A stretch of DNA of 64,000 bases from an uncultured Acetobacteraceae bacterium (GTDB taxonomy: Bacteria; Pseudomonadota; Alphaproteobacteria; Acetobacterales; Acetobacteraceae): contig CAXTVM010000002.1 in assembly GCA_964247725.1 (NCBI GenBank), positions 30,876 to 94,875 on the forward strand, given 5' to 3'. The position numbers and the translations under genes are program-made. The notes beneath the pieces were generated by a model that worked only from the letters and a program-made list of their open reading frames with translations, had not been told where the DNA came from and ran no database searches. Positions 30,139-55,610 of this stretch are shown here, piece by piece. The first letter of the stretch is position 1. Each line of letters starts with the position of its first letter.

Positions 30139-30178
30139 GGCAGCTTGGTGCCGTCGATCCGCCAGAGCTTCGGCAGCC
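30139..30178. repeat. 40-bp imperfect direct repeat, left copy
   Basis: GGCAGCTTGGTGCCGTCGATCCGCCAGAGCTTCGGCAGCC; 36/40 identical to 35101-35140 by manual alignment. Confidence 0.85.
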
Positions 30179-31212: not shown

Positions 31213-31477
31213 TGTCCCGTTCGGATCCGCCGAAGGGTAGGAAGTGGATGATCCGGTCGGGTTGAACTACCAGAGCCAGGTCGGAGCTGCAGGCCGGGTC
31301 GTCTATGCTCCCGTCGACGAGTTCCCAGCTCATGAGGGAACTCCAACTGCTGCCGGACGAACGGTCAGCGATTGAGAATGAACACCAGCCGATCAAATTC
31401 GCTTGCTGATGGCTGGTAGACTCACGGAGACGTGCTCGCGCACCATAACTCGGGCCACGCGACCCTCTGCGATCCCG

Positions 31478-34867: not shown

Positions 34868-35096
34868 GCCGAGAGGTCCCTTCTCTGTTGGACCACTCAA
34901 CCAGCAATGTCTTTACGAGGCGTTGAGCACCGCTCGATCTCCCGCTTGAACGGTGCGCGTGCGTTGCGCCGGCTCGATCGCGACCCGTGATCCCGAACCC
35001 GCTGCGGCCGGATGGCGAGATCGCCCGCAAGACCGCGCGATCGTCGAAACGACCTGACCGACGTCCGATGTCGGGCGTATCGAGCAGCTCGGCCGT

Positions 35097-37345: not shown

Positions 37346-37509
37346 CGTCGCGCTCCCGCACCGGACGGCTCGCGACGCCGCGAACCTGGGCACCACGCTT
37401 AGTCGCAGGTTGCCGCCGCCTGCAATCGAAAGTTAACGATTTGTTGATCTCTAGTTTGTCACTCGGCGATGCGACTTCCGCCAAGTCTCAAACTCCGAGA
37501 CTGACGATG

Positions 37510-40500
37510 TCAGACAGAGAAATATTTCGCGTCGGGATTGAAAATGACCAGCGCGCTCGTCGACTGTTCCGGATGCAGCTGCCAGCCGTCCGACAGGCTG
37601 ACGCCGATGCGGTCGGCGCCGAGCAGGCGCAGCAGCGGCTCCTGGTCCTCCAGCCGCGGGCAGGCCGGATAGCCGAACGAGTAGCGCGAGCCGCGATAGC
37701 CCTGGGACAGCAGCCGGTCCATGTCGCGGTCGTCTTCGGCGGCATGGCCGAGCTCGGCGCGCATGCGCTTGTGCGCGTACTCGGCCATCGCCTCGGCCAT
37801 CTCCACCGACAGCCCGTGCAGGTAGAGGTAGTCCTGGTAGCGGTTGGCCTCGAACCAGATCCGGGCGACGTCGGAGGCCTTCTGCCCCACCGTCACCACC
37901 TGCAGCCCGACCACGTCGCGGCGCTCGTCGTCGACGTCGCGCACGAAGTCGGCGATGCAGGCGCCGTCGGCACGCGGCTGGCGCGGCAGCGCGAACCGAG
38001 CGGCCTCGGTGCGGCCGTCGGGCTCGAACAGGATCAGCTCGTTGCCCTGACCGGCCGCTTTCCAGTAGCCGGTGACGGCCTGCGGCCGCAGGATGTCCTC
38101 GTCCGCGCACAGCGCCAGCATGCGGCGCATCACCGGACGCAGCTCCTGCCGAGCCCAGCTCAGGAACTCGTCCAGCGAGCGGCCCTGCTTGCGGAAGCCC
38201 CACTGGAATTGATACAGGCTGCGCTCGTTCAGGAACGGGATCACCGCCTTCGGCGCGGCCTCGATCACGCGGGCACCCCAGAACGGCGGCTCGGACACCG
38301 GCAGGACCTCGTTGAGCCGCCGCCGTCGGGCCTGCGCGCCCGCCAGGTCGACCGTCTGGTAGCCGCGCGTCTCCGCCTGCTCCGGCGCCCTCTTCGTGAT
38401 GCGCGCCTTGGCCCCCCCCCGCCGGGACTGGATCGCGCCGAGGTAGGAATTGAGCTCGCCGCCGGCCAGCTTGTCCATCAGCGAGAGCCCGTCGAACGCG
38501 TCGCGCGCATAGGCCACCCGGCCGCCGTTGTAGGCCGCGACGCATTCCTCCTCGACGTAGTTGCGGGTGAGCGCCGCCCCCCCCAGCAGCACCGGCACCT
38601 GCAGCCCCTGGCGCGCCATCTCCTCGAGGTTCTCGCGCATCACCACGGTCGACTTCACCAGTAGCCCGGACATGCCGATGGCGTCCGCCTTGTGCTCGCG
38701 CACCGCGGCCAGCATGTCGGCCAGCGGCACCTTGATCCCGAGGTTGCAGACCCGGTATCCGTTGTTGGTCAGGATGATGTCGACCAGGTTCTTGCCGATG
38801 TCGTGCACGTCGCCCTTGACGGTGGCCAGCACGATGGTGCCGCGGGTCTGGCCCTCGGCGCGCTCCATGTGCGGCTCCAGGTGCGCCACTGCGGCCTTCA
38901 TGGTCTCGGCTGACTGCAGCACGAACGGCAGCTGCATCTTGCCCGAGCCGAACAGCTCGCCCACCGTCTTCATGCCGTCGAGCAGCACCGTGTTGATGAT
39001 GTCGAGCGGGGGCATCCGCGCCATCGCCTCGTCAAGCTCGGCCTCCAGCCCCTTGCGGTCGCCGTCGACTATGCGGTCGCGCAGCCGCCCCTCGACGGTG
39101 TCGGCGCGGACCTTCTTGACCGCGTCCGCCAGCTTGCGCTCGGCGAACATCGCCAGCACCGTCTGCAGCGGATCGTAGCCCTCGGCGCGGCGGTCGAAGA
39201 TCAGGTCCTCCATGACCCGGACCTCCTCGGGCGGGATCAGGTGCAGCGGCCGGATCTTGCTGACGTGCACGATCGCCGCCGTCATGCCGGCGCGCACCGC
39301 ATGGTCGAGGTACACCGAGTTCAGCACCGCGCGCGCGGCCGGGTTCAGGCCGAAGCTGACGTTGGAGAGGCCGAGCACGATCTGCACGTCGGGAAAGCGG
39401 TCGCGGATGGCTTTGATGCCCTCCAGCGTCCACTGGCCGAGCTTGCGGTCGTCCTCCATGCCGGTGGCGATGGTCAGCACCAGCGGGTCGATCATCAGGT
39501 CGGAGTGCGGCAGCCCGTGCCGGTCGCAGGCGAACGCGACCAGGCGCTCGGCGATGGCGAGCTTGCGGTCTGCCGTCTTCGCCATGCCCTCCTCGTCGAT
39601 GGTGCCCGCGACGATGACGGCGCCAAACTTCCGTGCCAGCACCAGGCGCTCGGTCGCGATGTGCTCGCCGTCCTCGAAGTTGATCGAGTTGATGATCGGC
39701 TTGCCGCCGTGCAGCTTGAGCGCGCTCTCGATCACCGGCGTCTCGGTGCTGTCGATCACCAGCGGCGCGTTCACCGAGCTGGTGAAGCGGCGGATCACCT
39801 CGTCCATCTCCGCGGTCTCGTCGCGGCCGACGAAGGCGGTGCAGACGTCGAGCGCGTTGGAGCCCTCGGCCGCCTGCTCGCGCCCGACCACGACGCAGCC
39901 GTCCCAGTCGCCGCCTTCCTGCAGCTCGCGCCACTTCCGCGAGCCGTTGGCGTTGCAGCGCTCGCCGATCGAGAAGTAGCTGTTCTCCTGGCGCAGCGGC
40001 GTCTGGCTGTAGAGGCTGGCGACCGACGGGATCCAGACCGGGCGGCGGGCCACCGGGGCCGGCCGGTGCCCGGCCTCGGTCCGGCGGCGCAGCATCGCGT
40101 CCAACGCCTCTATATGAGGAGTGGAGGTGCCGCAGCAGCCGCCGACCAGGTTCAGCCCGTCCTCGACGATGAAGCGCTCGATCCAGCTCGCCATCTCGGC
40201 CGGCGTCAGCGGGTAGTGGGTGCGGCCGTCGACCAGCTCGGGCAGGCCGGCGTTGGGCTGCACCGACAGCAGGCGCGGCCAGTTGGTGGCGAGCCAGCGC
40301 ACGTGCTCGGCCATCTCCTGCGGCCCGGTGGCGCAGTTGAGGCCGATCAGCGGCACGTCGAGGGCGTGGATGGCGGTGGCGGCGGCGGCGATGTCCGGCC
40401 CCACCAGCAGCGTGCCGGTGGTCTCGACCGTGACCTGGACGAAGATCGGCGTGTCGGTACCGGCCTGGTGCCGTGCCAGCTTGGCGCCGTTGACGGCGGC

Positions 40501-41004
40501 CTTGATCTGCAGCGTGTCCTGGCAGGTCTCGATCAGCAGCGCGTCGACGCCGCCGGCGATCAGGCCGCGGCACTGCGCGGCGAGTGCGGCCTCCAGCGGA
40601 TCGTAGGCGACGTTGCCGAGCGAGGGCAGCTTGGTGCCGGGCCCGATCGAGCCCACCACGTAGCGGTGCCGGCCGTCGCAGAACCCGTCCGCCGCCTCGC
40701 GGGCGAGCTCGGCCGCCACCCGGTTGATCTCGTGGGTGCGGCCGTCCAGGTCGAACTCGGCCAGCGTGATCGGCGAGCCGCCGAAGCTGTTGGTCTCGAC
40801 CATGTCGGCGCCGGCGGCGAAGTAGCCGCGATGGATCTCGCGCACCAGCTCCGGCCGCGACAGGTTCAGCACCTCGGTGCAGTTCTCCTGGCCCCAGTAG
40901 TCGCGTTCGACCTCGAGGTCGAGCATCTGCACCCGCGAGCCCATGCCGCCGTCGCAGAGCAGGACCTGGTCCCGGAGGGCGTCGAGGAGGTGAGGGCGGG
41001 TCAT
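37510..41004 (-). CDS. metH: Cobalamin-dependent methionine synthase
   Basis: LCDGGMG, GLNCATG, GGCCG, IGERCNANGS, TVKGDVHDIGKN (DxHxxG), GSRYSFGYPACP, PEQSTSA. Confidence 0.97.
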   Translation of the reverse strand: MTRPHLLDALRDQVLLCDGGMGSRVQMLDLEVERDYWGQENCTEVLNLSRPELVREIHRGYFAAGADMVETNSFGGSPITLAEFDLDGRTHEINRVAAELAREAADGFCDGRHRYVVGSIGPGTKLPSLGNVAYDPLEAALAAQCRGLIAGGVDALLIETCQDTLQIKAAVNGAKLARHQAGTDTPIFVQVTVETTGTLLVGPDIAAAATAIHALDVPLIGLNCATGPQEMAEHVRWLATNWPRLLSVQPNAGLPELVDGRTHYPLTPAEMASWIERFIVEDGLNLVGGCCGTSTPHIEALDAMLRRRTEAGHRPAPVARRPVWIPSVASLYSQTPLRQENSYFSIGERCNANGSRKWRELQEGGDWDGCVVVGREQAAEGSNALDVCTAFVGRDETAEMDEVIRRFTSSVNAPLVIDSTETPVIESALKLHGGKPIINSINFEDGEHIATERLVLARKFGAVIVAGTIDEEGMAKTADRKLAIAERLVAFACDRHGLPHSDLMIDPLVLTIATGMEDDRKLGQWTLEGIKAIRDRFPDVQIVLGLSNVSFGLNPAARAVLNSVYLDHAVRAGMTAAIVHVSKIRPLHLIPPEEVRVMEDLIFDRRAEGYDPLQTVLAMFAERKLADAVKKVRADTVEGRLRDRIVDGDRKGLEAELDEAMARMPPLDIINTVLLDGMKTVGELFGSGKMQLPFVLQSAETMKAAVAHLEPHMERAEGQTRGTIVLATVKGDVHDIGKNLVDIILTNNGYRVCNLGIKVPLADMLAAVREHKADAIGMSGLLVKSTVVMRENLEEMARQGLQVPVLLGGAALTRNYVEEECVAAYNGGRVAYARDAFDGLSLMDKLAGGELNSYLGAIQSRRGGAKARITKRAPEQAETRGYQTVDLAGAQARRRRLNEVLPVSEPPFWGARVIEAAPKAVIPFLNERSLYQFQWGFRKQGRSLDEFLSWARQELRPVMRRMLALCADEDILRPQAVTGYWKAAGQGNELILFEPDGRTEAARFALPRQPRADGACIADFVRDVDDERRDVVGLQVVTVGQKASDVARIWFEANRYQDYLYLHGLSVEMAEAMAEYAHKRMRAELGHAAEDDRDMDRLLSQGYRGSRYSFGYPACPRLEDQEPLLRLLGADRIGVSLSDGWQLHPEQSTSALVIFNPDAKYFSV

Positions 41005-41150
41005 CGTGATCCTTTGGCTGGCGGGCCTGCGTCCGCCTCCGTCCGGCAAGCCTGGGAGGCCGGACTTGCCAGATGGGGTCCCGACGCGCTTCTCACAAAG
41101 CCGGGCGCGGCTGTCCAGCGTCCGGCGTGCAACCGACGGAGCGACAGGAC

Positions 41151-41540
41151 ATGCGGCTCGACCCCCGGATCCCGCTGCGGCTGCAGACGCCGCCGCCGCC
41201 GCCCGATCCGGACGGGGTGCTGCTGCTGGTGGGTGCGGCCGGCCAAGATGGCGATGTCGATGGCGGCGCCGACGGCTGGGGCGCGGTCAGGCGCCTGCCC
41301 GGCGAGTTGGTCCGGCCCGGGCTGCGGGCGCACGTGACGGGCTGCGCCTGCTGCGGCGGGCGCTCGGGGCTGGCGATCGGGTTGTCGGAGCTGTTCCGGC
41401 AGGGTGCCGGCGGTGCGCTGGGGCCGTTCCGGCAGGTGGTGCTGGCGGTGCCGACGGCCGACCTCGCGACCGCCCGGCGCCTGCTCGCCGCCGATCTCCT
41501 GGTGACGGCCCGCTATCGCGTTGCGCCGGCGTTAGGATAA
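41151..41540 (+). CDS. Small hypothetical protein with HxxGCACC motif
   Basis: AGGA then ATG at 41151; HVTGCACCGGRSGLAIGLSELF; divergent from metH. Confidence 0.65.
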   Translation: MRLDPRIPLRLQTPPPPPDPDGVLLLVGAAGQDGDVDGGADGWGAVRRLPGELVRPGLRAHVTGCACCGGRSGLAIGLSELFRQGAGGALGPFRQVVLAVPTADLATARRLLAADLLVTARYRVAPALG

Positions 41541-41658
41541 AATCCATCACCTGTGGGATATTGCGTGCTAGGTTCCGGCGGCTGGTCGCGCCGATGGCGG
41601 CTTTGCGTCACGCGCCGGGGACGTCCTTGACCCGATGCGTCCTGTTGAAGGAAATCCC

Positions 41659-43929
41659 GTGGATCAACGCAACGACAACGCCGGCGACTTCGGACTTACG
41701 CCGGAGCGCCCCGCTGCCGGTCAGGGTGCGAAGGCGCCCGACCCGTTGACCATCCGGCTTCGCGCCGCGATGGCCGCCGCCAAGTACCACGGCGTCGAAC
41801 TGGATCCGAAGACCTTCCAGGCCGAGCCGAACGAGCCGTCGCCGTCGCCGGCGACGCTGGTGCGCTGGATGGACGACCAGGGCATGATCGCGCGCGGCAT
41901 GCACCTGAAGTGGCGCTACCTGGTGAAGATGCACAATACCCCGCCGATCGTCCTGATGTTCAAGGACGGCTCGGCCGGGCTGTTCATCTCCGCCGAGCCG
42001 CATCGCGGCATCGTCTGGCTGCGCGACCCGATGGCCGGCGAGAGCGAGCCGATGGTCGCGGTCGACGAGCTGCGGCTGAGCCAGGTCTGGACCGGCGACG
42101 TGCTGCTGGTGCGCCGGGCGCGGTCGGAGTCCGAGGCCGAGACGCCGGTGGACGTGCGCTGGCTGAGCCGCGTGGTAATGCGCGAGCGCGCGTCGCTGCG
42201 CGACATCATGCTGTCCTCGATGGTGCTGTCGGTGCTGACGATCCTGCCGGCGCTGATCATCATGCAGGTGATCAACAAGGTGGTCGGCGAGCATTCGCTG
42301 GCGACGCTGTTCTCCATCACCATGATCCTGGTGGTCATCTCCTTCTACGAGACGCTGCTCACCTACGCGCGGCGCGAGCTGGTGCTGGTGATGACGGCCC
42401 GGGTCGACAGCCGCATCAGCATCCACGTGTTCAACCGGCTGCTGGCGCTGCCGCTCGAGTATTTCGAGCGCCAGCAGGCCGGCAACGTGATCGGCCGCGT
42501 AATGGCCATCTACAAGGTCCGCGACTTCATGACGGGATCGCTGCTGCGCACCTTTCTCGACATGTTCACCTTGGTGCTGATCCTGCCGTTCCTGTTCTTC
42601 CTGAGCTCGACCCTGGCGTGGATGGTGCTGGCGGCCGCCGGCGCGATCGGCCTGATCGTGGTCATCTTCATGGGACCGGTCGGCTACTACATCGGCCGTG
42701 TCACCAACGCTGAGGTCGAGCGCGGATCGGTGCTCTACGAGTCGATCGCCGGCATCCGCACCTTGAAGACGCTGGCGCTGGAGCCGATGCGCCGACAGGA
42801 ATGGGACGAGAAGACTGCCGAGGTCACGCGCTGGAAGCTCGCCGCCGGCCGGATGGCCAACTGGCCACAGACCATCATCATGCCGGTCGAGCTGTTCATC
42901 AGCCGCGGCGTCATGCTGGTCGGCGCCTACCTGGCGCTCGAGGACACCACCGGGACCGGCACGATCACCGCCGGCAGCCTGGTCGCGTTCATGATGCTGG
43001 GCGGCCGAGTCGCCCAGCCGCTGGTCGGCTTCGCCCGCTTGCTGGAGGACTTCACCGAGGTGCGCACGGCGCTCGGCGAGGTCGGCTCGGTGCTGAACCA
43101 GCCGACCGAGACCAAGGCGCTCACCACCGGCATGCGTCCTAAGATCCTGGGCGCGCTGTCCTTCCTTGACGTCAACTTCGCCTACCCAGGCTCCCCGACC
43201 AAGGCGCTGGACGGGGTCAACTTCGAGATCCCGGCCGGCACCTCGCTGGGCGTGGTCGGCCGAAGCGGCTCGGGCAAGTCGACCATCACCCGCCTGCTAC
43301 AGGGCGTCAGCCGGAGCTACACCGGCTACCTGAAGCTCGACGGCGTCGACATGCGGGAGATCAACCTCAACCACCTGCGCCGCTCGTTCGGGGTCGTGCT
43401 GCAGGACAACTTCCTGTTCCGCGGCACCATCCGCGACAACATCACCGCCGGCCGCCCGGGACTGACGCTGGATGACGTGGTGCGGGCGGCCCGCCTCGCC
43501 GGTGCGGAGGAGTTCATCGAGCGGATGCCGGCCGGCTACGAGACCTTCATCGAGGAAGGCTCGACCAACGTCTCCGGTGGTCAGAAGCAGCGCCTGGCGA
43601 TCGCCCGCGCGCTGATCTCCGACCCCAAGCTGCTGATCCTGGACGAGGCGACCTCGGCGCTCGATCCGGAGAGCGAGGCACTGGTCAACGCCAACCTGGC
43701 GCGGATGGCCAAGGGACGCACGATGGTCCTGGTCTCGCACAGGCTGTCGTCGCTGGTGGATTGCGACCTGATCCTGGTGATGGAGCAGGGCAAGGTGAAC
43801 GACATCGCGCCGCATAACGTGCTGGTCGAGCGCTGCGCGATCTACCGCCAGCTCTGGCTGCAGCAGAACCGGCACATGAACGCCGAGCGCAATGCGGGTC
43901 CGGCGCCGATGCTGGCCGAGGGGGATTGA
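41659..43929 (+). CDS. Type I secretion ABC transporter (HlyB-like, N-terminal C39-like domain)
   Basis: GTG start after AAGGAA; TM domain; Walker A GRSGSGKST, VSGGQKQR, LILDEATSALD; no catalytic Cys visible in the C39-like domain. Confidence 0.93.
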   Translation: MDQRNDNAGDFGLTPERPAAGQGAKAPDPLTIRLRAAMAAAKYHGVELDPKTFQAEPNEPSPSPATLVRWMDDQGMIARGMHLKWRYLVKMHNTPPIVLMFKDGSAGLFISAEPHRGIVWLRDPMAGESEPMVAVDELRLSQVWTGDVLLVRRARSESEAETPVDVRWLSRVVMRERASLRDIMLSSMVLSVLTILPALIIMQVINKVVGEHSLATLFSITMILVVISFYETLLTYARRELVLVMTARVDSRISIHVFNRLLALPLEYFERQQAGNVIGRVMAIYKVRDFMTGSLLRTFLDMFTLVLILPFLFFLSSTLAWMVLAAAGAIGLIVVIFMGPVGYYIGRVTNAEVERGSVLYESIAGIRTLKTLALEPMRRQEWDEKTAEVTRWKLAAGRMANWPQTIIMPVELFISRGVMLVGAYLALEDTTGTGTITAGSLVAFMMLGGRVAQPLVGFARLLEDFTEVRTALGEVGSVLNQPTETKALTTGMRPKILGALSFLDVNFAYPGSPTKALDGVNFEIPAGTSLGVVGRSGSGKSTITRLLQGVSRSYTGYLKLDGVDMREINLNHLRRSFGVVLQDNFLFRGTIRDNITAGRPGLTLDDVVRAARLAGAEEFIERMPAGYETFIEEGSTNVSGGQKQRLAIARALISDPKLLILDEATSALDPESEALVNANLARMAKGRTMVLVSHRLSSLVDCDLILVMEQGKVNDIAPHNVLVERCAIYRQLWLQQNRHMNAERNAGPAPMLAEGD

Positions 43930-43931
43930 GC

Positions 43932-45383
43932 ATGAGCGACTCGACCGAGATCGTCCCGCACGGCGAGGCCGGCGGGCTGCGCCCGAAGCGCGGCTCCCGC
44001 CGCGTCGCCGCCAGCAACGACGACATGCCGCCCGCCCTGCTGGAGTTCCATTCCCCGAGCGCTGCCATGGCGGCGATGCCGCCTACGCCGTCGGCCCGCT
44101 ACATCACCTGGATCGTGTCCTCAATGTCGATCGCGGGGCTGCTGATGATGGCGCTGTTCCCGATCAACCGGGTGGTGACGGTGCCCGGCGCCCTGGTGGC
44201 GACGGAGCCGACCATCGTCATCCAGCCGCTCGAAACCTCCATCATCCGCTCGATCGACGTGCGTGAGGGCGACGCGGTCCGCAAGGGCCAGGTGCTGGCG
44301 CATCTCGACCCGACCATCAGCAACGCGGATGTCAAGAACCTCCGGAGCCAGACCCTGAGCCTGCAGGCGGAGGTCAACCGGCTCACGGCCGAGGCATCCG
44401 ACAAGGACTACGCGGTCGATCCCTCGAGTCCGGACTCGACCCAGCAGGCGGCGCTCTTCCTGCAGCGGAAGAACCAATATGCCTTCAAGCTGAACAACTA
44501 CCAGCAGCAGATCTCGGCGCTGCAGAACCAGCTGGTCGGCTACCAGGCCAGTGCCGCGCTCTTTGCCGGCCGGGTCAAGGTGGCCGCCAACGTTCGCGAC
44601 ATGCGGGTCGAACTGCAGCGCGACCAGGTCGGCAGCCGCCTAAACTCGCTCGCCTCGCAGGATGACCTGATGGAGGTCGAGCGCTCGCAGATTGGCGCGC
44701 AGCAGGATGCGGCGGCGGCCCGCGACAAGCTGAGCGCCCTCATCGCCGAGCGCGACGGTTATGTCCAGGGGAGCAAGGCGGAGACCTACCAGTCGCTGAC
44801 CGAGGCCCAGCGCAAGCTGTCGGAGGCGACCAGCGACTACCAGAAGGCGACGGTGTCGAACGGGCTGCTGGTGATGAAGGCGGACCGCAACGCAATCGTG
44901 CTGAACATCGCGCACGTCTCGGTTGGCTCGGTGATCACGTCGGCGCAGCAGTTCATGACGCTGACCCCCACTGACGTGCCGCTCGACATCGAGGCGCGGC
45001 TGCAGGCTGCCCAGGCCGGCTTCGTACAGCTCGGCGACAAGGCGCAGGTCAAGTTCGAGACCTTCCCCTACATCCAATACGGCGGCGCCAACGCAACGGT
45101 CGTCAACATCAGCTCGGACAGTTTCTCGGAGGAAGGTGCCCAGGCCGCCATCGCCAGCGCTCCAGCCAACGGCCTCGCCACTCCCGGCGGCGCCGGCGCC
45201 GCGTTCTACCGCATCCGCCTGCGGGTCGACGGCTACACGCTGCATGACGTGCCGAACTACTTCAAGCCGGCGGCGGGCATGATGGTCAGCTCCGACATCA
45301 ACGTCGGCAAGCGGACGATCCTGCAGTATCTGCTGAGCTCGATCGTGCCGACCCTCACCGAGGGCATGCGCGACCCGAGCTGA
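43932..45383 (+). CDS. HlyD-family type I secretion membrane fusion protein
   Basis: Single TM, IQPLETSIIRSIDVREGDAVRKGQVL, long coiled coil, KFETFPYIQYG, GMMVSSDINVGKRTILQYLL. Confidence 0.93.
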   Translation: MSDSTEIVPHGEAGGLRPKRGSRRVAASNDDMPPALLEFHSPSAAMAAMPPTPSARYITWIVSSMSIAGLLMMALFPINRVVTVPGALVATEPTIVIQPLETSIIRSIDVREGDAVRKGQVLAHLDPTISNADVKNLRSQTLSLQAEVNRLTAEASDKDYAVDPSSPDSTQQAALFLQRKNQYAFKLNNYQQQISALQNQLVGYQASAALFAGRVKVAANVRDMRVELQRDQVGSRLNSLASQDDLMEVERSQIGAQQDAAAARDKLSALIAERDGYVQGSKAETYQSLTEAQRKLSEATSDYQKATVSNGLLVMKADRNAIVLNIAHVSVGSVITSAQQFMTLTPTDVPLDIEARLQAAQAGFVQLGDKAQVKFETFPYIQYGGANATVVNISSDSFSEEGAQAAIASAPANGLATPGGAGAAFYRIRLRVDGYTLHDVPNYFKPAAGMMVSSDINVGKRTILQYLLSSIVPTLTEGMRDPS

Positions 45384-45492
45384 GCCGTGCGGCCGGCGTG
45401 ACGATCGACCAGGCTGTCCCGGCTGCGTGCGGCGCCGGGACGGACCATCGCCCGGCCACCGGTCGGGCCTCGCGGGAGTGTTGCAAGGTCCG

Positions 45493-47277
45493 ATGGCGAA
45501 CTTCCTGACCCAGCGCGCCGCCGCGATGTTCTCGCCGCGTGCGAAGCTGCGCTACGCGCTCAGCCTTATTGAAGCCGGCGAGGTCGGGCGCGCCTTCGCC
45601 CCCTTGAGCGCCGCCGCCACCGCTGGGATCCCGGAAGCCCAGTTCCGCGTCGGACGCGCCTATCTCGATGGTGCCGGGGTTCCGGTCAGCCGCGAGGAAG
45701 GGGCACGCTGGATCGAGCGGGCGGCGGAGACCGGCTGGGTCGAGGCGCAGGTGGTGCTAGCCACCCTGCACCTGTTCGGGCTGGTGGTGGGGTCCGCGTC
45801 CGGCACCGCGATGTTCGGCGGTGTCGCGCCGCAGGACGCCAAGCCCGACTACGAGGGTGCGGCCGCCTGGGCTCGGCGCGCGTCCGACGCCGGATCGCCG
45901 GACGGGCAGGCGCTGCTGGGCTACCTGCTCACCTCCGGTCCTGCGGAGCTCCGCGACCTCGATGCCGCCGACGCCTGGTATGAGAAGTCGGCCGCCGCCG
46001 GCTGTCCGCAGGGGCACCTTGGCATCGCCCTTGCGCAGCTGCGCAACGCGCTCGACGCCGAAGGGCAGCAGCGCGCCGCCAGCAGCCTCGCCAAGGCGGC
46101 CGCGGGCGGCCTCGGCACCGCGCTCTACCTGCTCGGCGTGATGACCGAGCGCGGCGCCGGCGTGAAGCAGGACATTGCCGCCGCCACCGACCTCTACCGC
46201 CAGGCGGCCGAGCGCCACGTCCGCTCCGGGCAGGCCCGCTACGGTCTGGCCCTGCTGGAGGGGCGCGGCGTCGAACGCAATCCCGCCCGCGGCGAGTCTT
46301 GGCTGCGCCGCGCCGCCCTGGCGGGAGACGCCGAGGCCGCCGCCCTGATCGGCGACATCTATTCGCGCGGTGGCGAGCTGCCGCCGAACTACACCGAGAG
46401 CGCCACCTGGTACGGCCGCGCCGCCGCCGCCGGCCACGCCGCCTCGGCGCGGGCGCTCGGCCTGCTCTACCTCACCGGCGCCGGCGTACAGCGCGACCCG
46501 GAGGAGGCGGCCCGCTGGTTCCGCCATTCCGCGGAACGCGGCGACCAGCTGGCACACGTCGATCTCGGCAACCTGGTGCTGGCCGGTGCCGGCGGCGAGG
46601 AGGATCGCATTGCCGCCCGCGAGCGGTTCGAGCAGGCGGCGGAGACCGGCGACCTGGTGGCCGCCTTCAATTTCGGCGTGTGCCTGGCGGAGGGCGTCGG
46701 CATCGAGCGCAACGACCGCCAGGCTGCCCTGTGGCTGCGCCGCGCTGCCGACGGGGTGGTAAACGCGCAGTATTGGTATGGCCGGATGCTGGCCGAGGGG
46801 CGCGGCGTCGAGGTCGATCTCAAGGAGGGCCGCGCCTGGATCGCCAAGGCGGCCGAGGCCGGGTTGCCGGACGCCGAGATGGCCTACGCGGAGATGCTGC
46901 TGGCCGGCCGCGGCGGCCCGCGCGACCATCCCGCGGCACTCGAGATGTTCGAGCGCGCCGCGCGGCAGGGCCATGTGAACGCGATCTTCTCGGTGGCGGC
47001 GATGCATGGCGGCGGTCACGAGGTGCCGGAGGATCGGCCGCAGGCGCAGGTGTTCTTCCGCCAGGCGGCCGAGCGCGGCCACGCCATGGCGCAGCTTATG
47101 CTCGGCCGCTACCTGGTGCGCGGGCTCGCCGGCGAGACCAACCCGGCCGAGGCAAGGCTGTGGTTGCAGCGCGCCCGCGCGCAGGGGATCAGCCAGGCGG
47201 ATGCCGAGCTGGCCCGGCTCGGCACCCGTCCACCGGCGCCGCCGGCGCCCGTGGCGCGCGCCGTCAACCAGCACTGA
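45493..47277 (+). CDS. Sel1-repeat (SLR) protein
   Basis: About a dozen repeats of the form AQFRVGRAYLDGAGV...A.W...AA. Confidence 0.92.
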   Translation: MANFLTQRAAAMFSPRAKLRYALSLIEAGEVGRAFAPLSAAATAGIPEAQFRVGRAYLDGAGVPVSREEGARWIERAAETGWVEAQVVLATLHLFGLVVGSASGTAMFGGVAPQDAKPDYEGAAAWARRASDAGSPDGQALLGYLLTSGPAELRDLDAADAWYEKSAAAGCPQGHLGIALAQLRNALDAEGQQRAASSLAKAAAGGLGTALYLLGVMTERGAGVKQDIAAATDLYRQAAERHVRSGQARYGLALLEGRGVERNPARGESWLRRAALAGDAEAAALIGDIYSRGGELPPNYTESATWYGRAAAAGHAASARALGLLYLTGAGVQRDPEEAARWFRHSAERGDQLAHVDLGNLVLAGAGGEEDRIAARERFEQAAETGDLVAAFNFGVCLAEGVGIERNDRQAALWLRRAADGVVNAQYWYGRMLAEGRGVEVDLKEGRAWIAKAAEAGLPDAEMAYAEMLLAGRGGPRDHPAALEMFERAARQGHVNAIFSVAAMHGGGHEVPEDRPQAQVFFRQAAERGHAMAQLMLGRYLVRGLAGETNPAEARLWLQRARAQGISQADAELARLGTRPPAPPAPVARAVNQH

Positions 47278-47352
47278 CCGGTCCTGCGGCGGCAGGAGCC
47301 GGGTCCATGTCCGTCCGTCTGTCGCCGGGGCAGCTGGCCCGACCGGATTGCG

Positions 47353-50300
47353 ATGCACGCGCCGATGTCCGCACCGCCTGATCCGCTGCCGGCCGGACGC
47401 ATCACCGAGGCCGATCGGGCGCAGTGGCACATCTGGGCCGAGGCGCGCGCGCAGGACGCGTTCCGGCGCGGCCGCCAAGCCGCAGACCGCGGCCAGGCCG
47501 GCGACGCGCTGCGCTGGCTGGAGCGGGCGCACCGCCTGGCGCCTACCGCGGCCAACGTCACCTTCCCGCTGGCCATGGCCCGGATGTCCTCGGGCGATCC
47601 GCACGGCGCGGTGCGGCTGCTGCAGGGGCTGTTGCAGCGCCACGATTTCCGCGAGGGCTGGATCGCGCTGGCGGCGGCGCGCCGCGCCGCGGGCTCGCCC
47701 GACGAGGCCGCCGCCGCGGTCGGCGAGGCGCTGGCGCGGCATGCGCCGGACCCTGCCGTCGTTGGGCTGATCGGCGAGATCGCCCGCGGCGCCGGCTGGC
47801 CCGGCTGGTGCGGCCTGTCCGGCGACGGCCGCCTGCACCTGGATCGCGGCGCCGGCCGCGACCCGCTGCTGGTGCGGCTGGACGGCGTGCCGATCCGGCC
47901 GCGGGCGAGCGGCGGCGTGTCGCGGCTGCCGCGCGGCTGGTCGCAGGGCCGGCGGCTCGACGTGTCGCGCGGCGGCCGCGCGCTGCTCGGCAGCCCGCTC
48001 GACATCCGGGCGATCCTCCGCGTCGAGGGCTTCGTCGAGGTGGCCGACGGGCGGCTGACCGGCTGGGTCTGGCATCCCGGCGAGCCTGAGCGCGTGCCCG
48101 TGGTGACGCTGCGGTCGGCCTGCGGCGCTAGCCTCACCGTCACCATGGAGCGCTTCGCCGACCACATCACCAGCGAGGTGCCGCTGGCCCGGCCCCGGCT
48201 GCTGTGCCTGCCTCCGGAGGCGGCGGCGCTGGAGCGGGACGGCGTGGTCCGGCTGCTGGGCGACGACGGGCGCGACCTGCTCGGCAGCCCGCTGGACCCC
48301 GGTCTGGAAGGCCGGGCCGCCGTTGCGGTCGCCTTGCTGCAGGCGCGGCACAGCACGCAGAGCCGCCTGCCGCCGGCGGCGCGCGGGCGGACCCTGGCGG
48401 CGGCCGGCGAGCTGCCGCCGTTCCTGCCGGTCTCGGCCTGGATCGCGGGACAGGCGCCGGAGGTCGGCGCCGCCGCACCGGTCGACGTGGTGGTGCCGGT
48501 CTATCGCCACCTTCGCCGCACGATCGAATGCCTGGAGAGCGTGCTGGCCAACGTCCCGGCCGGCACCCGCCTGGTGGTGGTGGAGGACGCCTCGCCGGAC
48601 GAGGCGTTGGTGCAGGCGCTGGTGACGCTGCGCGAGGCCGGCCGTATCCACCTGCTGCGCCACGCCGCCAACCGCGGCTTCCCGGCCAGCGCCAACGACG
48701 GCATCGCGTCCTGCCCCGGTCGCGACGTCGTGCTGCTGAACAGCGACACGCTGGTGGCGCCGGGCTGGCTCGAGGCGCTGCGCCGGGCGGCCTACGCGGC
48801 ACCCGACATCGGCACCGCGACGCCGTTCAGCAACGACGGCAGCATCCTCAGCTATCCCGATCGGCAGGTGCGCAACCCGATGCCCGACCTCGCCGGCACC
48901 CGCCGGATGATGGCGCTGGCGGCGGCGACCAACGGCGATGCGGTGCACGACATCCCGACCGGCAACGGCTTCTGCCTGTACCTGCGGCGCGACTGCCTCG
49001 ACCAGGTCGGGCTGCTGCGCGAGGACCTGTTCGCGCAGGGCTACGGCGAGGAGAACGATCTCTGCCTGCGCGCGCGCCACCTCGGCTGGCGGCACGTCGC
49101 CGCACTCGGCGTCTACGTCGCCCATGCCGGCCAGGTCTCGTTCGGCGCGGCGCGCACCGACCTGATGCGCCGCAACCTCGAGGTCATCAACCGGCTGCAT
49201 CCGGGCTACGACGCGCTGATCCTGGCCCACATCGCCGCTGACCCGCTGGCGCCGGCGCGACGCGCGCTCGACCTCGCGCGGTGGGGGCAGGCGCGGCGGG
49301 CGCGGGCGGCACGCGACATGGCGCCGCGCGCGGCGCTGCTGATCACCCACGCTCAGGGCGGCGGCGTCGAGCGCGTGGTGCAGGAGCGCGCCCGCCAGCT
49401 GCGGGCGCAAGGGCTACGCCCGATCGTGCTGCGGCCGGACGGCGACGGGGTGCTGGTCTCGGACGCGGCGCTGGAGGAGGGCTTCCCCAACCTCCGCTAC
49501 GCGCTGCCGGGGGAGTTCGAGGCGCTGGTGGCGATGCTGGTCCCGGAGGGCGTGCTGCATGCCGAGTGGCACCACCTGCTCGGCCACCACCCGCTGCTGC
49601 GCACGCTCTGCCGCCGCCTCGGCGTGCCCTACGACGCCTTCATCCACGACTATGCCTGGTTCTGTCCGAGGATCGCGTTGATCGGGCCGGGCGGGCGCTA
49701 TTGCGGGGAGCCGGATGTCGGCGGCTGCGAGGCCTGTATCGCGATCCAGGGCAGCAGCCTCGACGAGCCGATCGCGGTCAGGGCGCTGCTGGCCCGCTCG
49801 GCGGCGGAGCTGCGGGCGGCGCGCCGGGTGATGGCGCCGTCGCAGGATGCGGCGGCCCGCATCGCGCGGCATTTCGCGAAGGTCCGCGCGGAGGTAGTGC
49901 CGTGGGAGGACGACCGCCCGGACCTGTCCCTGGAGCGGCTGGCGGCGGTGTCGTCGCTGGCGCCGCGGCCGACGCTGGAGCGCCCGGGCCACCGCGGCCA
50001 GCCCGGCGGCATCGGACGGATCGCCGTGATCGGCGGTATCGGCCGCGAGAAGGGCTACGACGTGCTGCTGGCCTGCCTGGTCGAGGTCCGTGCCCGGGCC
50101 TTGCCGCTGGAGTTCGTGGTGGTCGGTCATACGCCGGACGACGCGGCGCTGATGGAGGCCGGGTGCCGCTTCGTCACCGGCGAGTATCGCGAGGACGATG
50201 CGGTGGCGCTGATCCGGTCGCAGGAGGCGGACCTGGCATTGCTGCCGTCGATCTGGCCGGAGACCTGGTGCTTCACGCTGAGCCTGGCCTGGCGCGCCGG

Positions 50301-50439
50301 GCTCGCGGTGGCGGCGTTCGACCTCGGCGCCCCGGCCGAGCGGATCCGCCGCACCCGTCGCGGCACGGTGCTGCCGCTGGGGCTGCCGGTTCCGCAACTC
50401 GTCATGCAGTTGCTGCGGCTTTGCCATTCCGGCGCCTGA
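47353..50439 (+). CDS. Multidomain glycosyltransferase: TPR, unknown domain, GT2, GT4-like
   Basis: N-terminal TPR helices; DVVVPVY, VVEDASPD, NRGFPASANDG, LLNSDT (GT2); IGREKG, LPSIWPETW (GT-B). Confidence 0.88.
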   Translation: MHAPMSAPPDPLPAGRITEADRAQWHIWAEARAQDAFRRGRQAADRGQAGDALRWLERAHRLAPTAANVTFPLAMARMSSGDPHGAVRLLQGLLQRHDFREGWIALAAARRAAGSPDEAAAAVGEALARHAPDPAVVGLIGEIARGAGWPGWCGLSGDGRLHLDRGAGRDPLLVRLDGVPIRPRASGGVSRLPRGWSQGRRLDVSRGGRALLGSPLDIRAILRVEGFVEVADGRLTGWVWHPGEPERVPVVTLRSACGASLTVTMERFADHITSEVPLARPRLLCLPPEAAALERDGVVRLLGDDGRDLLGSPLDPGLEGRAAVAVALLQARHSTQSRLPPAARGRTLAAAGELPPFLPVSAWIAGQAPEVGAAAPVDVVVPVYRHLRRTIECLESVLANVPAGTRLVVVEDASPDEALVQALVTLREAGRIHLLRHAANRGFPASANDGIASCPGRDVVLLNSDTLVAPGWLEALRRAAYAAPDIGTATPFSNDGSILSYPDRQVRNPMPDLAGTRRMMALAAATNGDAVHDIPTGNGFCLYLRRDCLDQVGLLREDLFAQGYGEENDLCLRARHLGWRHVAALGVYVAHAGQVSFGAARTDLMRRNLEVINRLHPGYDALILAHIAADPLAPARRALDLARWGQARRARAARDMAPRAALLITHAQGGGVERVVQERARQLRAQGLRPIVLRPDGDGVLVSDAALEEGFPNLRYALPGEFEALVAMLVPEGVLHAEWHHLLGHHPLLRTLCRRLGVPYDAFIHDYAWFCPRIALIGPGGRYCGEPDVGGCEACIAIQGSSLDEPIAVRALLARSAAELRAARRVMAPSQDAAARIARHFAKVRAEVVPWEDDRPDLSLERLAAVSSLAPRPTLERPGHRGQPGGIGRIAVIGGIGREKGYDVLLACLVEVRARALPLEFVVVGHTPDDAALMEAGCRFVTGEYREDDAVALIRSQEADLALLPSIWPETWCFTLSLAWRAGLAVAAFDLGAPAERIRRTRRGTVLPLGLPVPQLVMQLLRLCHSGA

Positions 50440-50551
50440 GCGGCCGCTCCGGCCGTGCTGGCGCCCATTGCAGGCGGGCGCACGTCGTCGCACCATCCTC
50501 GCCAACAACGATAACCTGCCCGGCCGTGGTCGGCATGAACGGAACCCGACG

Positions 50552-51652
50552 ATGTCGCAGACCAGTCCGACACCGAACCAGAGGCTGGTGACGGAGCTCA
50601 AGGTTTCGGCCCACCTGATGCTGCTCGATCCAGGACTGTTCTGCGTCTTCCACAGCCCCGGCACGCCGCTGCCGGACCCGGCGACCGGCCTGCCCGGGGT
50701 GCGGATCAGCCGGCCGCCGACCACGGCCGACGCCATGCTGTCGATCAGCACCTTCAACGCCGACGGCTGGCTCGGCGGCGAGGGCAACGCGGCGCTGGTG
50801 CGGGTAGCGTCGCAGCCGTCGCAGGTGCTGATCACGATCTACCAGGCGGCCGGCAGCACCGTGGAGGCGCCGAAGCTGCAGGTGCTCCGCCTGAGCGAGA
50901 CCGCCCCCGCCCGGGTCGCGCCGCCGCAGGAGCAGATGGCCGCACCATCCGCCGGCGACCGTCGCGGAAGCGAGACCCCGGCGGCGGGCGCGGTCCCGGC
51001 GGGGACCAAACTGGAGGTGGCAGCGCACGTGCAGCGCCGCGGCGACGTGCTGTCGCGGCTCGGCGAGTGGATGGGCAACCGGGGCAGCCAGAACTGGATC
51101 GAGGGCTTCGGCATCTCGCCGAACAGCCTGGTCGACCCGAGCGAGATCGAATACCAGGCGGTGCTCGGCAAGGGCTGGCTGTCGCCCTGGGCGGAGGGCG
51201 GCAACTACTGCGGCAGCCGCGGCATGGCGCTGCCGATCCTGGGCTTGCGCGTACGCCTGAAGGGCCAGGCGGCCGAACGGTTCGACGTCCGCGTCAGCGC
51301 CAGCTTCACCGACGGCAGCCAGGTCGGGCCGGTCGACGGCACCCACACGGCGGAGTCGCCGGACCTGGCGCCGCTAGAGGCGTTCCTGGTCGAGATCGTG
51401 CCGCGCGACGACCTGGCGTCGGACGGCGCCGAGCCCGAGCAGGCGGTGAAGACCCGGGCGGCGCCCCGCCCGGCCGCGAAGCCGTCGCGCGGGGCGCCGG
51501 AGCCGGTGAAGCCGAAGGTCGCGGCGCTGAAGCGCGGCGTCCGCCCGCCACTGGACAAGCCCAGCTTGAAGCCGATGCGGGGTGGGGCCGGTGCCATGCC
51601 GGCGCGGCACAACGGTCCGGCCGGCAAGGCCGGCAGCAAGGGCCGGCGCTGA
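50552..51652 (+). CDS. Hypothetical protein with two ChW (hydrophobic Trp)-like repeats and a basic low-complexity tail
   Basis: AHVQRRGD...GEWMGNRGSQNWIEGFGI and YQAVLGKGWLSPWAEGGNYCGSRGMALPILGLRVRL. Confidence 0.75.
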   Translation: MSQTSPTPNQRLVTELKVSAHLMLLDPGLFCVFHSPGTPLPDPATGLPGVRISRPPTTADAMLSISTFNADGWLGGEGNAALVRVASQPSQVLITIYQAAGSTVEAPKLQVLRLSETAPARVAPPQEQMAAPSAGDRRGSETPAAGAVPAGTKLEVAAHVQRRGDVLSRLGEWMGNRGSQNWIEGFGISPNSLVDPSEIEYQAVLGKGWLSPWAEGGNYCGSRGMALPILGLRVRLKGQAAERFDVRVSASFTDGSQVGPVDGTHTAESPDLAPLEAFLVEIVPRDDLASDGAEPEQAVKTRAAPRPAAKPSRGAPEPVKPKVAALKRGVRPPLDKPSLKPMRGGAGAMPARHNGPAGKAGSKGRR

Positions 51653-51819
51653 CGCGACGTCGTGGCCGGACGGCCACGGTGCCGGATAGTGGCCTTATCG
51701 GATCGTCAAGCTGTTGCCTGGCATGATGCGGCGATGCACACCCTCCGTTCCTCCGCCCGTGCGCCGAGGGCTCAGCGGCCTCGCTGGGCCGTCCGCGTCG
51801 AGACGATGGCGAGCTTGTC

Positions 51820-53043
51820 TTGAGATACCTGTTCATCCACCAGAACTTCCCGGGGCAGTTCCTGCACCTGGTGCGCCACCTGACCCGACAGGGCGGCCAT
51901 GAGGTGGTGTTCATCAGCGAGCCGAACGCCAACGTCCTGCCGGGGGTCCGCAGGATCTTCTACAAGATGAGGCGAAGTGCGTCGGCCGAGACGCATCCGG
52001 CGGCGCAGGAGTTCGAGGTGGCGATGCTGCGCGCCGAGATGGTAGCGCAGACCGCCCGGAACCTGAAGAACCTCGGTTTCGAGCCCGACATCATCATCGG
52101 CCACCATGGCTGGGGCGAGCTGCTCAACATCCGCGACGTGTACCCGGACACGCCGATGCTGGGCTACCTCGAGTTCTATTATCACGTCGACAAGTTCGAC
52201 GTCGGCTTCGATCCCGAATTTCCGAACGACCCCGCGCTGCACGCGCGCGTCCGGGCCAAGAACGCGGTCAACCTGATCGCGCTCAACATCGCCGGGCAGG
52301 GCCAGACGCCGACCCTGTTCCAGAAGTCGACCTATCCCGAATGGGCGCAGGACCGCATCGCGATGCTGCGGGAGGGCGTCGACCTGCAGGCCTGCGCGCC
52401 CGATCCGTCGCTGGCGAAGCGGGACTTCGTGCTGCGCAACGTGCTGGTGCGCGCGCACGAGAAGCTGGTGACCTACGTCTCGCGCGACCTCGAGCCGTAT
52501 CGCGGCTTCCACAGCGTGATGCGGGCGCTGCCGCACATCCTGGACGAGCGGTCCGATGCGCAGGTGGTCCTGGTCGGCGGCGACGGCGTCAGCTACGGCG
52601 CGCGGCTGGCCGAAGGCTGCTGGCGCGAGGTGCTGACTGCGGAGCTCGGCAGCCGGCTCGACCTGTCGCGCGTGCACTTCGTCGGCAAGCTCGACTACCA
52701 GAGCTACGCCGACCTGCTGAAGCGGTCGGACGCGCACGTCTACCTGACCTACCCGTTCGTCGCCTCATGGTCGTTGCGGGAGGCGCTGGCCTCGGGCTGC
52801 GCCATTGTCGGCAGCGATACCGCGCCGGTGCAGGAGTTCATCCGCCATGGCAAGAACGGCCTGCTGGCGCCGTTCCACGACCCCGCCGGCATCGCCGATG
52901 CGGTGCTCGAGCTGTTGGAGAACAAGGCGCTGGCGCAGCGCCTGCGCCGCGCCGCGCGCAAGGACGCCGAGCGCACGCTCTCGATGGCGGACTACCTCAC
53001 GAACTACGAGGCGCTGATCGAGGAGACCATCGCGGCCGCATAA
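51820..53043 (+). CDS. Glycosyltransferase family 4 (HQNFPGQF subgroup)
   Basis: FIHQNFPGQF, IIGHHGWGE, RDLEPYRGF, YLTYPFVASWSLREALASG. Confidence 0.92.
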   Translation: MRYLFIHQNFPGQFLHLVRHLTRQGGHEVVFISEPNANVLPGVRRIFYKMRRSASAETHPAAQEFEVAMLRAEMVAQTARNLKNLGFEPDIIIGHHGWGELLNIRDVYPDTPMLGYLEFYYHVDKFDVGFDPEFPNDPALHARVRAKNAVNLIALNIAGQGQTPTLFQKSTYPEWAQDRIAMLREGVDLQACAPDPSLAKRDFVLRNVLVRAHEKLVTYVSRDLEPYRGFHSVMRALPHILDERSDAQVVLVGGDGVSYGARLAEGCWREVLTAELGSRLDLSRVHFVGKLDYQSYADLLKRSDAHVYLTYPFVASWSLREALASGCAIVGSDTAPVQEFIRHGKNGLLAPFHDPAGIADAVLELLENKALAQRLRRAARKDAERTLSMADYLTNYEALIEETIAAA

Positions 53044-53163: not shown

Positions 53164-53691
53164 CTATGCCGTCTTCACGGCCGCCAACGCCTCCCGGATG
53201 ACCTGCCCCGCCTCCTCTCGGCCGGCCCAGCCGGTGACCTTCACCCACTTCCCCTTCTCGAGGTCCTTGTAGCGGGTGAAGAAGTGCTCGATCGCCTGGC
53301 GGGTGATCTCGGGCAGCTGCATCACCTCCTGGATCTCGGTGAACTGGGTGTGCATCTTGTCGTGCGGCACGCAGACGATCTTCTCGTCCATGCCGCTCTC
53401 GTCTTCCATCTTCAGCATGCCGATCGGGCGGGCGCGGATCACGGCACCCGGCACCATCGGCGCCGGCGCCAGCACCAGCGCGTCGGCCGGATCGCCGTCG
53501 GCGGCGAGCGTCCCGGGGATGAAGCCGTAGGCGGCCGGGTAGGCCATCGGCGTGAACAGGAAGCGGTCGACGAACACCGCGCCGCTCTCCTTGTCGATCT
53601 CGTACTTGACCGAGGAGCCGGCCGGGATCTCGATGACGACGTTGATGTCCCATGGGACGTCCTTGCCGGGGCTGATCTTGGAGACGTCCAT
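53164..53691 (-). CDS. ppa: Inorganic pyrophosphatase (family I)
   Basis: VKYEIDKESG, YGFIPGTLAADGDPAD, MEDESGMDEKI, FFTRYKDLEKGKW. Confidence 0.96.
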   Translation of the reverse strand: MDVSKISPGKDVPWDINVVIEIPAGSSVKYEIDKESGAVFVDRFLFTPMAYPAAYGFIPGTLAADGDPADALVLAPAPMVPGAVIRARPIGMLKMEDESGMDEKIVCVPHDKMHTQFTEIQEVMQLPEITRQAIEHFFTRYKDLEKGKWVKVTGWAGREEAGQVIREALAAVKTA

Positions 53692-53810
53692 CGTGCGGTC
53701 TTCCTGCGGATTGGCGAGAGGTGCCGGGACCGTATCGGCGCCGCCCGGCTTTGCCAAGCAGACCCGCCTTGCCAACCCAGCCGAGTTGGGCGATCTGATC
53801 GCAGGCCTGT

Positions 53811-53883
53811 GCGCCCGTAGCTCAATGGTCAGAGCGGGCCGCTCATAACGGCTTGGTTGCGGGTTCGAGTCCTGCCGGGCGCA
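53811..53883 (+). tRNA. tRNA with CAT anticodon, most likely tRNA-Ile2 (lysidine); CCA not encoded
   Basis: Acceptor GCGCCCG/CGGGCGC, D arm GCTC-AATGGTCA-GAGC, anticodon loop CTCATAA, T loop GGTTCGAGTCC, discriminator A followed by CGT. Confidence 0.92.
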
Positions 53884-53930
53884 CGTCCTCGTTCCGCCCT
53901 ACCCCACACGCCTATGTCGGGAGCTTCGCC

Positions 53931-55610
<1,680 letters not shown>

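Follow-up and report, generated by a model that had tools for sequence, protein, structure and literature searches.

A conserved six-gene block of Acetobacteraceae joining a type I secretion trio to soluble glycosyltransferases, with a possible role in an EPS II-like glycan pathway

In cytoplasmic protein O-glycosylation with dedicated export, serine-rich-repeat adhesins are served by GtfA/B and the accessory Sec system, flagellins by the tetratricopeptide repeat (TPR)-glycosyltransferase FlmG, and in type I secretion the C39-like domains of ATP-binding cassette (ABC) transporters such as HlyB are protein-substrate binding modules. In the exp (wg) cluster for exopolysaccharide II (EPS II, galactoglucan) of Sinorhizobium meliloti, a type I secretion system, a secreted calcium-binding protein and soluble glycosyltransferases (GTs) occur without Wzx/Wzy, the pump is genetically tied to polysaccharide production and the ExpC pathway makes free polysaccharide (PMC1403797). 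A review states that ExpD1 (the ABC protein) and ExpD2 (the membrane fusion protein, MFP) are needed for secretion of the calcium-binding ExpE1. The exp cluster is therefore a genetic precedent for a type I pump tied to soluble GTs in the absence of Wzx/Wzy. The present analysis concerns a block of six co-oriented genes (41635-53043, + strand) in a 64,000-nucleotide stretch of DNA, hereafter the window, from an uncultured Acetobacteraceae bacterium (contig CAXTVM010000002.1, positions 30,876 to 94,875). The block encodes an ABC transporter, an HlyD-family adaptor, a Sel1-repeat protein, a TPR-GT2-GT-B enzyme, a ChW-like protein and a GT4, and it may serve an EPS II-like surface or extracellular glycan pathway dependent on type I secretion. 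Glycan clusters associated with type I secretion are already known; what sets this block apart is an ABC transporter with a C39-like domain, a fixed Sel1 partner, a TPR-GT2-GT-B enzyme with a ChW-like accessory protein, and the lack of linked cargo.

All six open reading frames (ORFs) were verified at their coordinates and their codon-position GC is typical of genes (GC3 0.88-0.93). The HlyB-like ABC half-transporter (41635-43929) carries a C39-like domain (approximately 41767-42159) followed by the transmembrane and nucleotide-binding domains, and the start of the gene for the HlyD-family type I periplasmic adaptor (43926-45383) overlaps its stop codon. The ORF of the Sel1-repeat protein (45493-47277) opens at 45427, with the conserved start being the methionine at 45493. 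There follow a soluble multidomain GT of 1028 residues (47353-50439), the ChW-like protein (50552-51652; its ORF runs from 50468, the conserved start at 50552 being taken from the alignment) and an ExpC-type GT4 (51820-53043). In a hydropathy scan, the ABC and HlyD proteins alone have transmembrane segments, with neither a signal peptide nor a transmembrane segment in the Sel1, TPR-GT, ChW-like and GT4 proteins. The original prediction, made from the sequence of this DNA, had described the genes, domains and orientation in much the same terms and had noted the lack of signal peptides and membrane segments in the four accessory proteins, and the domain matches, ORFs and hydropathy scan confirm it on both counts.

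A pattern scan that took a single genome for each species gave 393 genomes with a gene for a relative of the ChW-like protein. The best 80 of these, nearly all labelled Acetobacteraceae and including Acetobacter, Gluconobacter, Neokomagataea, Tanticharoenia, Lichenicola and Lichenicoccus, were compared together with four loci fetched earlier, giving 84 loci with flanks of approximately 10 kb. The complete block is present in identical order and orientation at 72 of the 84; at the other 12, a contig end truncates the locus and leaves the expected subset, so that every one of the 72 Acetobacteraceae loci of sufficient length has the block complete. Median identity to the proteins of the window is 70% for the ABC transporter (74 loci), 64% for GT4, 59% for Sel1, 57% for the ChW-like protein, 55% for HlyD and 49% for the TPR-GT enzyme. 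The flanking genes vary, with metH being adjacent in 37 loci and SelO in Gluconobacter. As gene order is kept while the flanks differ, the six genes move as a unit, which is what had been proposed, and the arrangement is far beyond chance. In A. pasteurianus, the orthologues bear only the cluster names "hypothetical protein" or "glycosyltransferase".

Plasmid pAAJCM20276_1 of A. aceti has a partial second glycan module, with a ChW-like protein and a GT4 that are 60% and 64% identical respectively and with interruptions by IS66 and IS5. Upstream of this partial copy are genes for a GT2, a 555-residue protein without family match and a Hint-domain protein.

Relatives outside these loci were found by translated searches of annotated plasmids. 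By these homologies, the block is two modules joined, namely an ABC-HlyD-Sel1 trio and a glycan set in which the ChW-like protein and the PF12000 GT4 accompany the TPR-GT2-GT-B enzyme. The order of the trio is retained in Azospirillum, Mesorhizobium, Gluconacetobacter diazotrophicus and Bradyrhizobium, where its ABC protein is annotated as "peptidase domain-containing". On the plasmids of Mesorhizobium ciceri, the trio is 55% (ABC), 41% (HlyD) and 50% (Sel1) identical and adjoins polysaccharide genes, and it is also found on plasmid p5 of Azospirillum brasilense Sp7 and on pS11L-4 of Bradyrhizobium japonicum. G. diazotrophicus PAl5 has two copies of the trio, one on plasmid pGDIA01 and one on the chromosome, with ABC proteins 68-70% identical and no GTs. 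The neighbours of these copies are acidic, Ser/Thr-rich proteins without signal peptide (isoelectric point (pI) 4.1-4.5 for those on the plasmid), one being annotated as a hemolysin-type calcium-binding protein. A TolC-family (OEP) gene and an insertion sequence (IS) element lie near the chromosomal trio. The RTX-like acidic neighbours have just three homologues in a collection of 5.8 billion proteins.

The glycan set (GT, ChW-like protein and GT4) recurs in Azospirillum, where the ChW-like part is fused to the GT, and in Niveispirillum, Bradyrhizobium and Aureimonas, all four of which have an ExpE1-like RTX gene accompanying it. In Azospirillum, Niveispirillum and Bradyrhizobium, the trio and the glycan set share one region, mostly plasmid-borne, which also holds a small RTX protein gene, a methyltransferase gene and rfbABCD; the partly annotated Aureimonas region is the only glycan-set region in which the methyltransferase and rfbABCD were not seen. 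The RTX proteins of Azospirillum and Niveispirillum share 35-37% identity with the calcium-binding protein encoded in the exp cluster of Sinorhizobium, and the Azospirillum RTX gene lies directly upstream of the TPR-GT-ChW gene, a 1396-residue fusion that is followed by a methyltransferase and a GT4 (46% identical). Wzm/Wzt pairs are present in the Azospirillum and Niveispirillum regions, and the Bradyrhizobium region has no annotated Wzm/Wzt in the 44 kb inspected. A Polaromonas RTX-ABC-HlyD-TolC operon ends in an overlap with a PF12000 GT4 gene. Across at least four alphaproteobacterial families, genes for secretion are linked to genes for GTs, which bears out the link that had been drawn between them, and independent co-location of the two modules is unlikely, given the conservation of the operon in 72 of 72 loci and the repeated co-occurrence in three other families.

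Two further kinds of neighbour should be mentioned. GH99-like (WbsX-type) proteins of approximately 1250-1300 residues recur in the Azospirillum and Bradyrhizobium versions (loci L085, L097 and L102), in Bradyrhizobium directly 3′ of the Sel1 gene. DUF6447-family genes occur near type I secretion genes in plasmid clusters of Rhodospirillum rubrum and Pseudosulfitobacter, in the former beside an RTX protein gene.

The ABC protein has the Pfam domains ABC_membrane (PF00664) and ABC_tran (PF00005), and its residues 49-742 align with residues 18-703 of E. coli HlyB (7sgr, E-value 2e-107), C39-like domain included. There are no cysteines in its first 500 residues, and in the N-terminal alignment the C39 Cys and His positions are substituted; Pfam Peptidase_C39 gave no match to it at E<0.01. 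The catalytic residues are likewise missing in the Acetobacteraceae, Mesorhizobium and Azospirillum proteins, unlike in the trio ABC protein of Bradyrhizobium (L102:15576-17810), which retains both the Cys and the His and may be an active peptidase. The protein misses the cutoffs of the HlyB and LssB subfamilies (521 against 725 bits for TIGR01846, 457 against 693 bits for LssB), which places it in a subfamily distinct from both. It also scores on models of exporters of lipid-linked glycans and glucans, such as PglK and NdvA, below its HlyB score. The HlyD adaptor scores 321 bits against a TIGR01843 cutoff of 209 and has a single N-terminal transmembrane segment (residues 59-91).

The block thus resembles the HlyB/HlyD/TolC system in the alignment of its ABC protein with HlyB, inactive C39-like domain included, in an adaptor above the family cutoff and in having sister copies beside RTX-like proteins. 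It differs in that no cargo or TolC is linked, the ABC protein falls below the HlyB cutoff and a Sel1 gene is fixed in the operon. In G. diazotrophicus, ABC proteins 68-70% identical to it have as neighbours a TolC-family gene and RTX-like proteins that are acidic and rich in Ser/Thr, and this supports the reading of the pump as a protein-type type I secretion system, in agreement with the original prediction.

The Sel1 protein has at least nine Sel1 repeats (E-value 1e-70) spanning its full length and is 50% identical to its Mesorhizobium plasmid counterpart. Its constant place suggests that it is the fixed third component of the trio and possibly an undescribed accessory of a subclass of type I secretion systems. 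We know of no described type I system with a Sel1-repeat gene as a fixed third member of the operon, and literature searches for a link between Sel1 and type I secretion found nothing specific.

The large GT has a TPR region (approximately 47407-47790), a beta domain (approximately 47800-48282), a GT-A domain of the GT2 type (approximately 48481-49152) and a GT4-like GT-B domain (approximately 49331-50427), and its AlphaFold2 (AF2) model has a pLDDT of 86. An insertion in the GT-B domain (49663-49737) holds four cysteines (C771, C784, C792 and C795; motif FCPR...YCGEP...CEAC) that are invariant in 41 homologues and probably form a zinc site. Residues 198-1008 are 45% identical to the 1396-residue Azospirillum enzyme. 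The GT2-GT-B module is 30-47% identical over approximately 615-850 residues to large GTs of clusters with Wzm/Wzt and rfb genes, with 30% identity to the large GT of the rfbBADC-wzm-wzt clusters of E. coli plasmids and 40% to a GT adjoining a type I pump and an RTX protein on a Rhodospirillum rubrum plasmid; the enzyme as such is 30-40% identical to GTs of polysaccharide clusters in E. coli, R. rubrum and Niveispirillum. The best sequence match of the GT-A domain in the PDB is GalT1 (5hea) of a serine-rich-repeat glycosylation pathway, a weak match (E-value 2.5e-6 over 105 residues), and the fold search returned only generic GT-A matches, including ppGalNAc-transferases, which cannot separate protein from glycan acceptors.

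The homologous large multidomain GT is also what the block has in common with Wzm/Wzt O-antigen pathways, such as the rfbBADC-wzm-wzt-GT cluster of the E. coli IncF plasmid and that of p5 in Azospirillum Sp7, where the large GT also bears TPR and ChW-like parts. Unlike these, the block is accompanied by neither Wzm/Wzt nor a terminator methyltransferase nor rfb genes, be it in the window or in the flanks of approximately 10 kb at the 84 loci.

The second GT of the block combines an N-terminal PF12000 half (E-value 5e-58) with a Glycos_transf_1 domain. It is 44-46% identical to the GT4s of the Azospirillum, Polaromonas, Bradyrhizobium and Aureimonas clusters and, along its entire length, shares 39-40% identity with the GT4 following the MarR regulator in the exp cluster of Sinorhizobium pSymB. 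The gene for the latter bears no named annotation; the gene order of the published map points to expC.

In the ChW-like protein, ChW (PF07538) gave one marginal match (24.8 bits against a cutoff of 22 bits), and a second repeat is visible only by eye in the alignment. The AF2 model has two beta-sandwich domains (approximately 50600-50896 and 51017-51406) with a disordered linker between them, and fold and sequence searches against the PDB gave no significant match. The C-terminal tail (51407-51649) is variable in length and sequence, disordered and basic (Lys/Arg/Pro-rich) and nearly always ends in RR, the protein having a pI of 9.5. It has no hydrophobic N-terminus, unlike secreted or wall-associated ChW proteins with signal peptide. 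In Azospirillum, the ChW-like part (28% identity to residues 14-285) is the C-terminal domain of the 1396-residue TPR-GT2-GT4-like enzyme and the tail is missing; Niveispirillum, Bradyrhizobium and Aureimonas have stand-alone relatives next to their GTs. The fusion speaks for a ChW-like protein that acts in the cell with the enzyme and not as exported cargo, and its reading as a free accessory or cargo protein finds no support. The Acetobacter ChW-like proteins (for example L074:10001-11146) have a strongly acidic helical stretch ahead of the tail.

No homologues of RTX proteins, Wzm, RfbB, methyltransferase or TolC were found in the 64-kb window or within approximately 10 kb of the block at the 84 loci, where matches to Wzt are generic nucleotide-binding domain matches. 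The window also has no RTX motif cluster, no dTDP-sugar genes, no pyruvyl transferases and no MarR regulator. The absence of TolC, RTX cargo, Wzt and sugar-nucleotide genes that had been remarked on from the sequence holds, and the TolC partner is probably encoded elsewhere in the genome. Hint-domain proteins, which had been put forward as prime candidates for cargo, find no support; a Hint gene occurs in just one of the 84 flanks (upstream flanks end inside metH, so this negative applies mainly downstream), while relatives have ExpE1/NodO-like RTX genes beside the system. The Hint_2-domain protein of the window (35675-37396, -) has a pI of 5.0, no signal peptide and no RTX repeats, and metH lies between its gene and the block.

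Like the block, the EPS II cluster has an ABC and HlyD-family pair, a PF12000 GT4 of approximately 40% identity and further soluble GT2/GT4 enzymes. Beside the ABC/HlyD pair, it encodes the calcium-binding protein and a methyltransferase, enzymes of the GT2 and GT4 families, pyruvyl transferases and rfbACBD, with no annotated Wzx/Wzy, Wzm/Wzt, polysaccharide co-polymerase (PCP) or outer membrane polysaccharide export (OPX) protein in the 33-kb locus. The relatives of the block system share with it the ExpE1 homologue, the methyltransferase and rfbABCD. The exp cluster has the MarR regulator ExpG, pyruvyl transferases and ExpE1, none of which is present in the block, and lacks the Sel1 partner, the TPR-GT2-GT-B enzyme and the ChW-like protein. 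The combination had been thought uncharacterised, which needs correction in so far as the exp cluster is a studied precedent (PMC1403797).

On this comparison, the best-placed reading, held tentatively, is that of an EPS II-like (galactoglucan-like) surface or extracellular glycan pathway which depends on type I secretion and has an unlinked RTX-like cargo. The three GT domains would assemble a glycan, presumably a polysaccharide, in the cytoplasm, drawing on nucleotide sugars supplied from elsewhere. The pump, with its dedicated cytoplasmic Sel1 partner and a TolC from elsewhere, would export a small acidic RTX-like protein which may be needed for, or bind, the glycan, and the gene for which would be unlinked in Acetobacteraceae but lies beside the system in relatives. 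The Sel1 repeats, the TPR region and the C39-like domain could mediate the coupling between the two activities.

Several points weigh against such a pathway. With no RTX-like gene in the window or in the flanks of the 84 loci, the cargo is hypothetical for Acetobacteraceae. The block has no linked gene for a priming transferase, a flippase, Wzm/Wzt, a polymerase or a ligase, which leaves the exit of the glycan unexplained, a gap that EPS II has as well. ExpD1 is a 588-residue PrtD-like ABC protein without a C39-like domain, whereas that of the block has one and is 25-27% identical to the Sinorhizobium ABC protein, and the GT2-GT-B enzyme has no exp counterpart beyond a weak GT2 match. Literature and annotations assign no function to the Acetobacteraceae block, with nothing specific found on the combination, the trio or the Azospirillum plasmid.

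A more daring variant, possible though rather doubtful, is that the pump moves a glycoconjugate, with a bridge of Sel1, TPR and inactive C39-like domain handing over either nascent polysaccharide or a cytoplasmically glycosylated RTX-like cargo.

Among the alternatives to the EPS II-like pathway, the one that survives best, unlikely as we consider it to be, is cytoplasmic glycosylation of the type I cargo itself. In this case, the TPR-GT enzyme and GT4 would modify dispersed acidic Ser/Thr-rich or RTX-like proteins, or Hint proteins, which Sel1 and TPR select or hold, before export of the glycoprotein. The layout resembles that of the SRRP and FlmG systems in that the soluble GTs of the block, one with TPR, share an operon with an export machine, and the four non-membrane proteins of the block without signal peptide or membrane segment are consistent with it. 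So are the Ser/Thr-rich, acidic composition of the cargo-like neighbours of the trio-only copies, which have no signal peptides, the RTX gene immediately 5′ of the TPR-GT-ChW gene in Azospirillum, the Polaromonas GT4 that overlaps an RTX-ABC-HlyD-TolC operon at its end, the Bradyrhizobium set without Wzm/Wzt and the weak match to GalT1. Unlike those systems, however, the block has a type I export machine, its similarity to protein GTs is weak or generic, the ppGalNAc-transferase fold matches being no more specific than GT-A, and no acceptor protein is encoded in the block or its flanks at the 84 loci, a Hint gene being present in the flanks of just one of them. The GT homologies to polysaccharide clusters (30-47% over more than 600 residues) and to ExpC are far stronger. 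Protein glycosylation as the default reading, as in the original prediction, is thus not supported, the closest GT relatives being in the Wzm/Wzt clusters of E. coli plasmids and Azospirillum and in Sinorhizobium EPS II.

It is quite unlikely that the ABC/HlyD pair and TolC export the glycan itself in place of Wzm/Wzt, with Sel1 and TPR tethering the polymerase to the C39-like domain. The ABC/MFP pair forms the only export-type genes of EPS II (PMC1403797), and a route for polysaccharide secretion via MFP and TolC is reported for mixed-linkage beta-glucan (PMC13438883). Such export would also fit the lack of any other export gene linked to the GT module in Acetobacteraceae, with none seen in the Bradyrhizobium region, and the scores of the ABC protein on PglK and NdvA-type exporters, though these are lower than for HlyB. 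It is opposed by the G. diazotrophicus ABC proteins, which at 68-70% identity have no GTs around them but RTX-like proteins and a TolC-family gene, as is characteristic of protein exporters, and by Azospirillum and Niveispirillum, which retain Wzm/Wzt alongside the trio. The C39-like domain, as a module that in HlyB binds protein substrates, also argues for a protein cargo.

That the cargo is inside the block, with the ChW-like protein (its C-terminal tail acting as signal) or Sel1 being exported, perhaps after glycosylation, is improbable. Type I substrates are usually encoded next to the pump, these two proteins are the sole products of the block that are neither enzyme nor pump, neither has a signal peptide and the ChW-like tail is variable and disordered; but the ChW-like part is a tailless domain of a Cys-rich cytoplasmic enzyme in Azospirillum, its tail is Lys/Arg/Pro-rich in a protein of pI 9.5 as against the acidic RTX-like neighbours of the sister pumps, and Sel1, made of repeats throughout and conserved like the enzymes (up to 50% to Mesorhizobium), fits a machine part better. 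A leader-peptide cargo 5′ of the ABC gene was rejected, as the C39-like domain has neither Cys nor His and the sole upstream ORF (41148-41540) is clade-restricted.

This small ORF (41148-41540, +), which encodes approximately 130 residues with a GCACC motif and has no Pfam match, lies between the ABC gene and metH (37510-41286, -), the latter bounding the block on one side. Counterparts 33-52% identical were found in 17 of the 84 loci, all of a Lichenicola-like clade, and are absent in Acetobacter and Gluconobacter; Lichenicola and Lichenicoccus are the best named relatives of the source genome. On the other side, the block is bounded by an inorganic pyrophosphatase gene (53164-53775, -), just downstream of which is that of an ABC-F type protein (53853-55610, +) with two ABC_tran domains and ABC_tran_Xtn, its position being kept in Lichenicola. 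Elsewhere in the window, which has a GC content of approximately 70%, and unlinked to the block, there is an O-antigen-ligase-like (Wzy_C) membrane protein gene (8060-10087, +) and a CobW-family GTPase gene (9762-11054, +) in a part with strongly negative AT skew. The region 30000-34900 has lower GC (0.61-0.64 against approximately 0.70) and holds the gene for a 1140-residue hybrid histidine kinase with Cache, PAS, HisKA, receiver and Hpt domains. A search of sequencing runs found the block region in DNA runs only.

The block is present in hundreds of Acetobacteraceae species, among them vinegar and sorbose production strains and symbionts of insect guts and plants, with its genes being annotated generically. 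In these bacteria, the formation of pellicles, the tolerance of acid and the colonisation of hosts are governed by surface glycans and secreted proteins, which makes the block a candidate determinant of these traits. It also bears on the EPS II question of why a type I pair with a small RTX protein controls a polysaccharide, for which the six-gene form is a minimal version in tractable hosts. If true, glycoconjugate translocation would mean that glycans or glycoproteins are secreted through a type I system, one kept throughout the acetic acid bacteria and also carried by Azospirillum and Bradyrhizobium plasmids.

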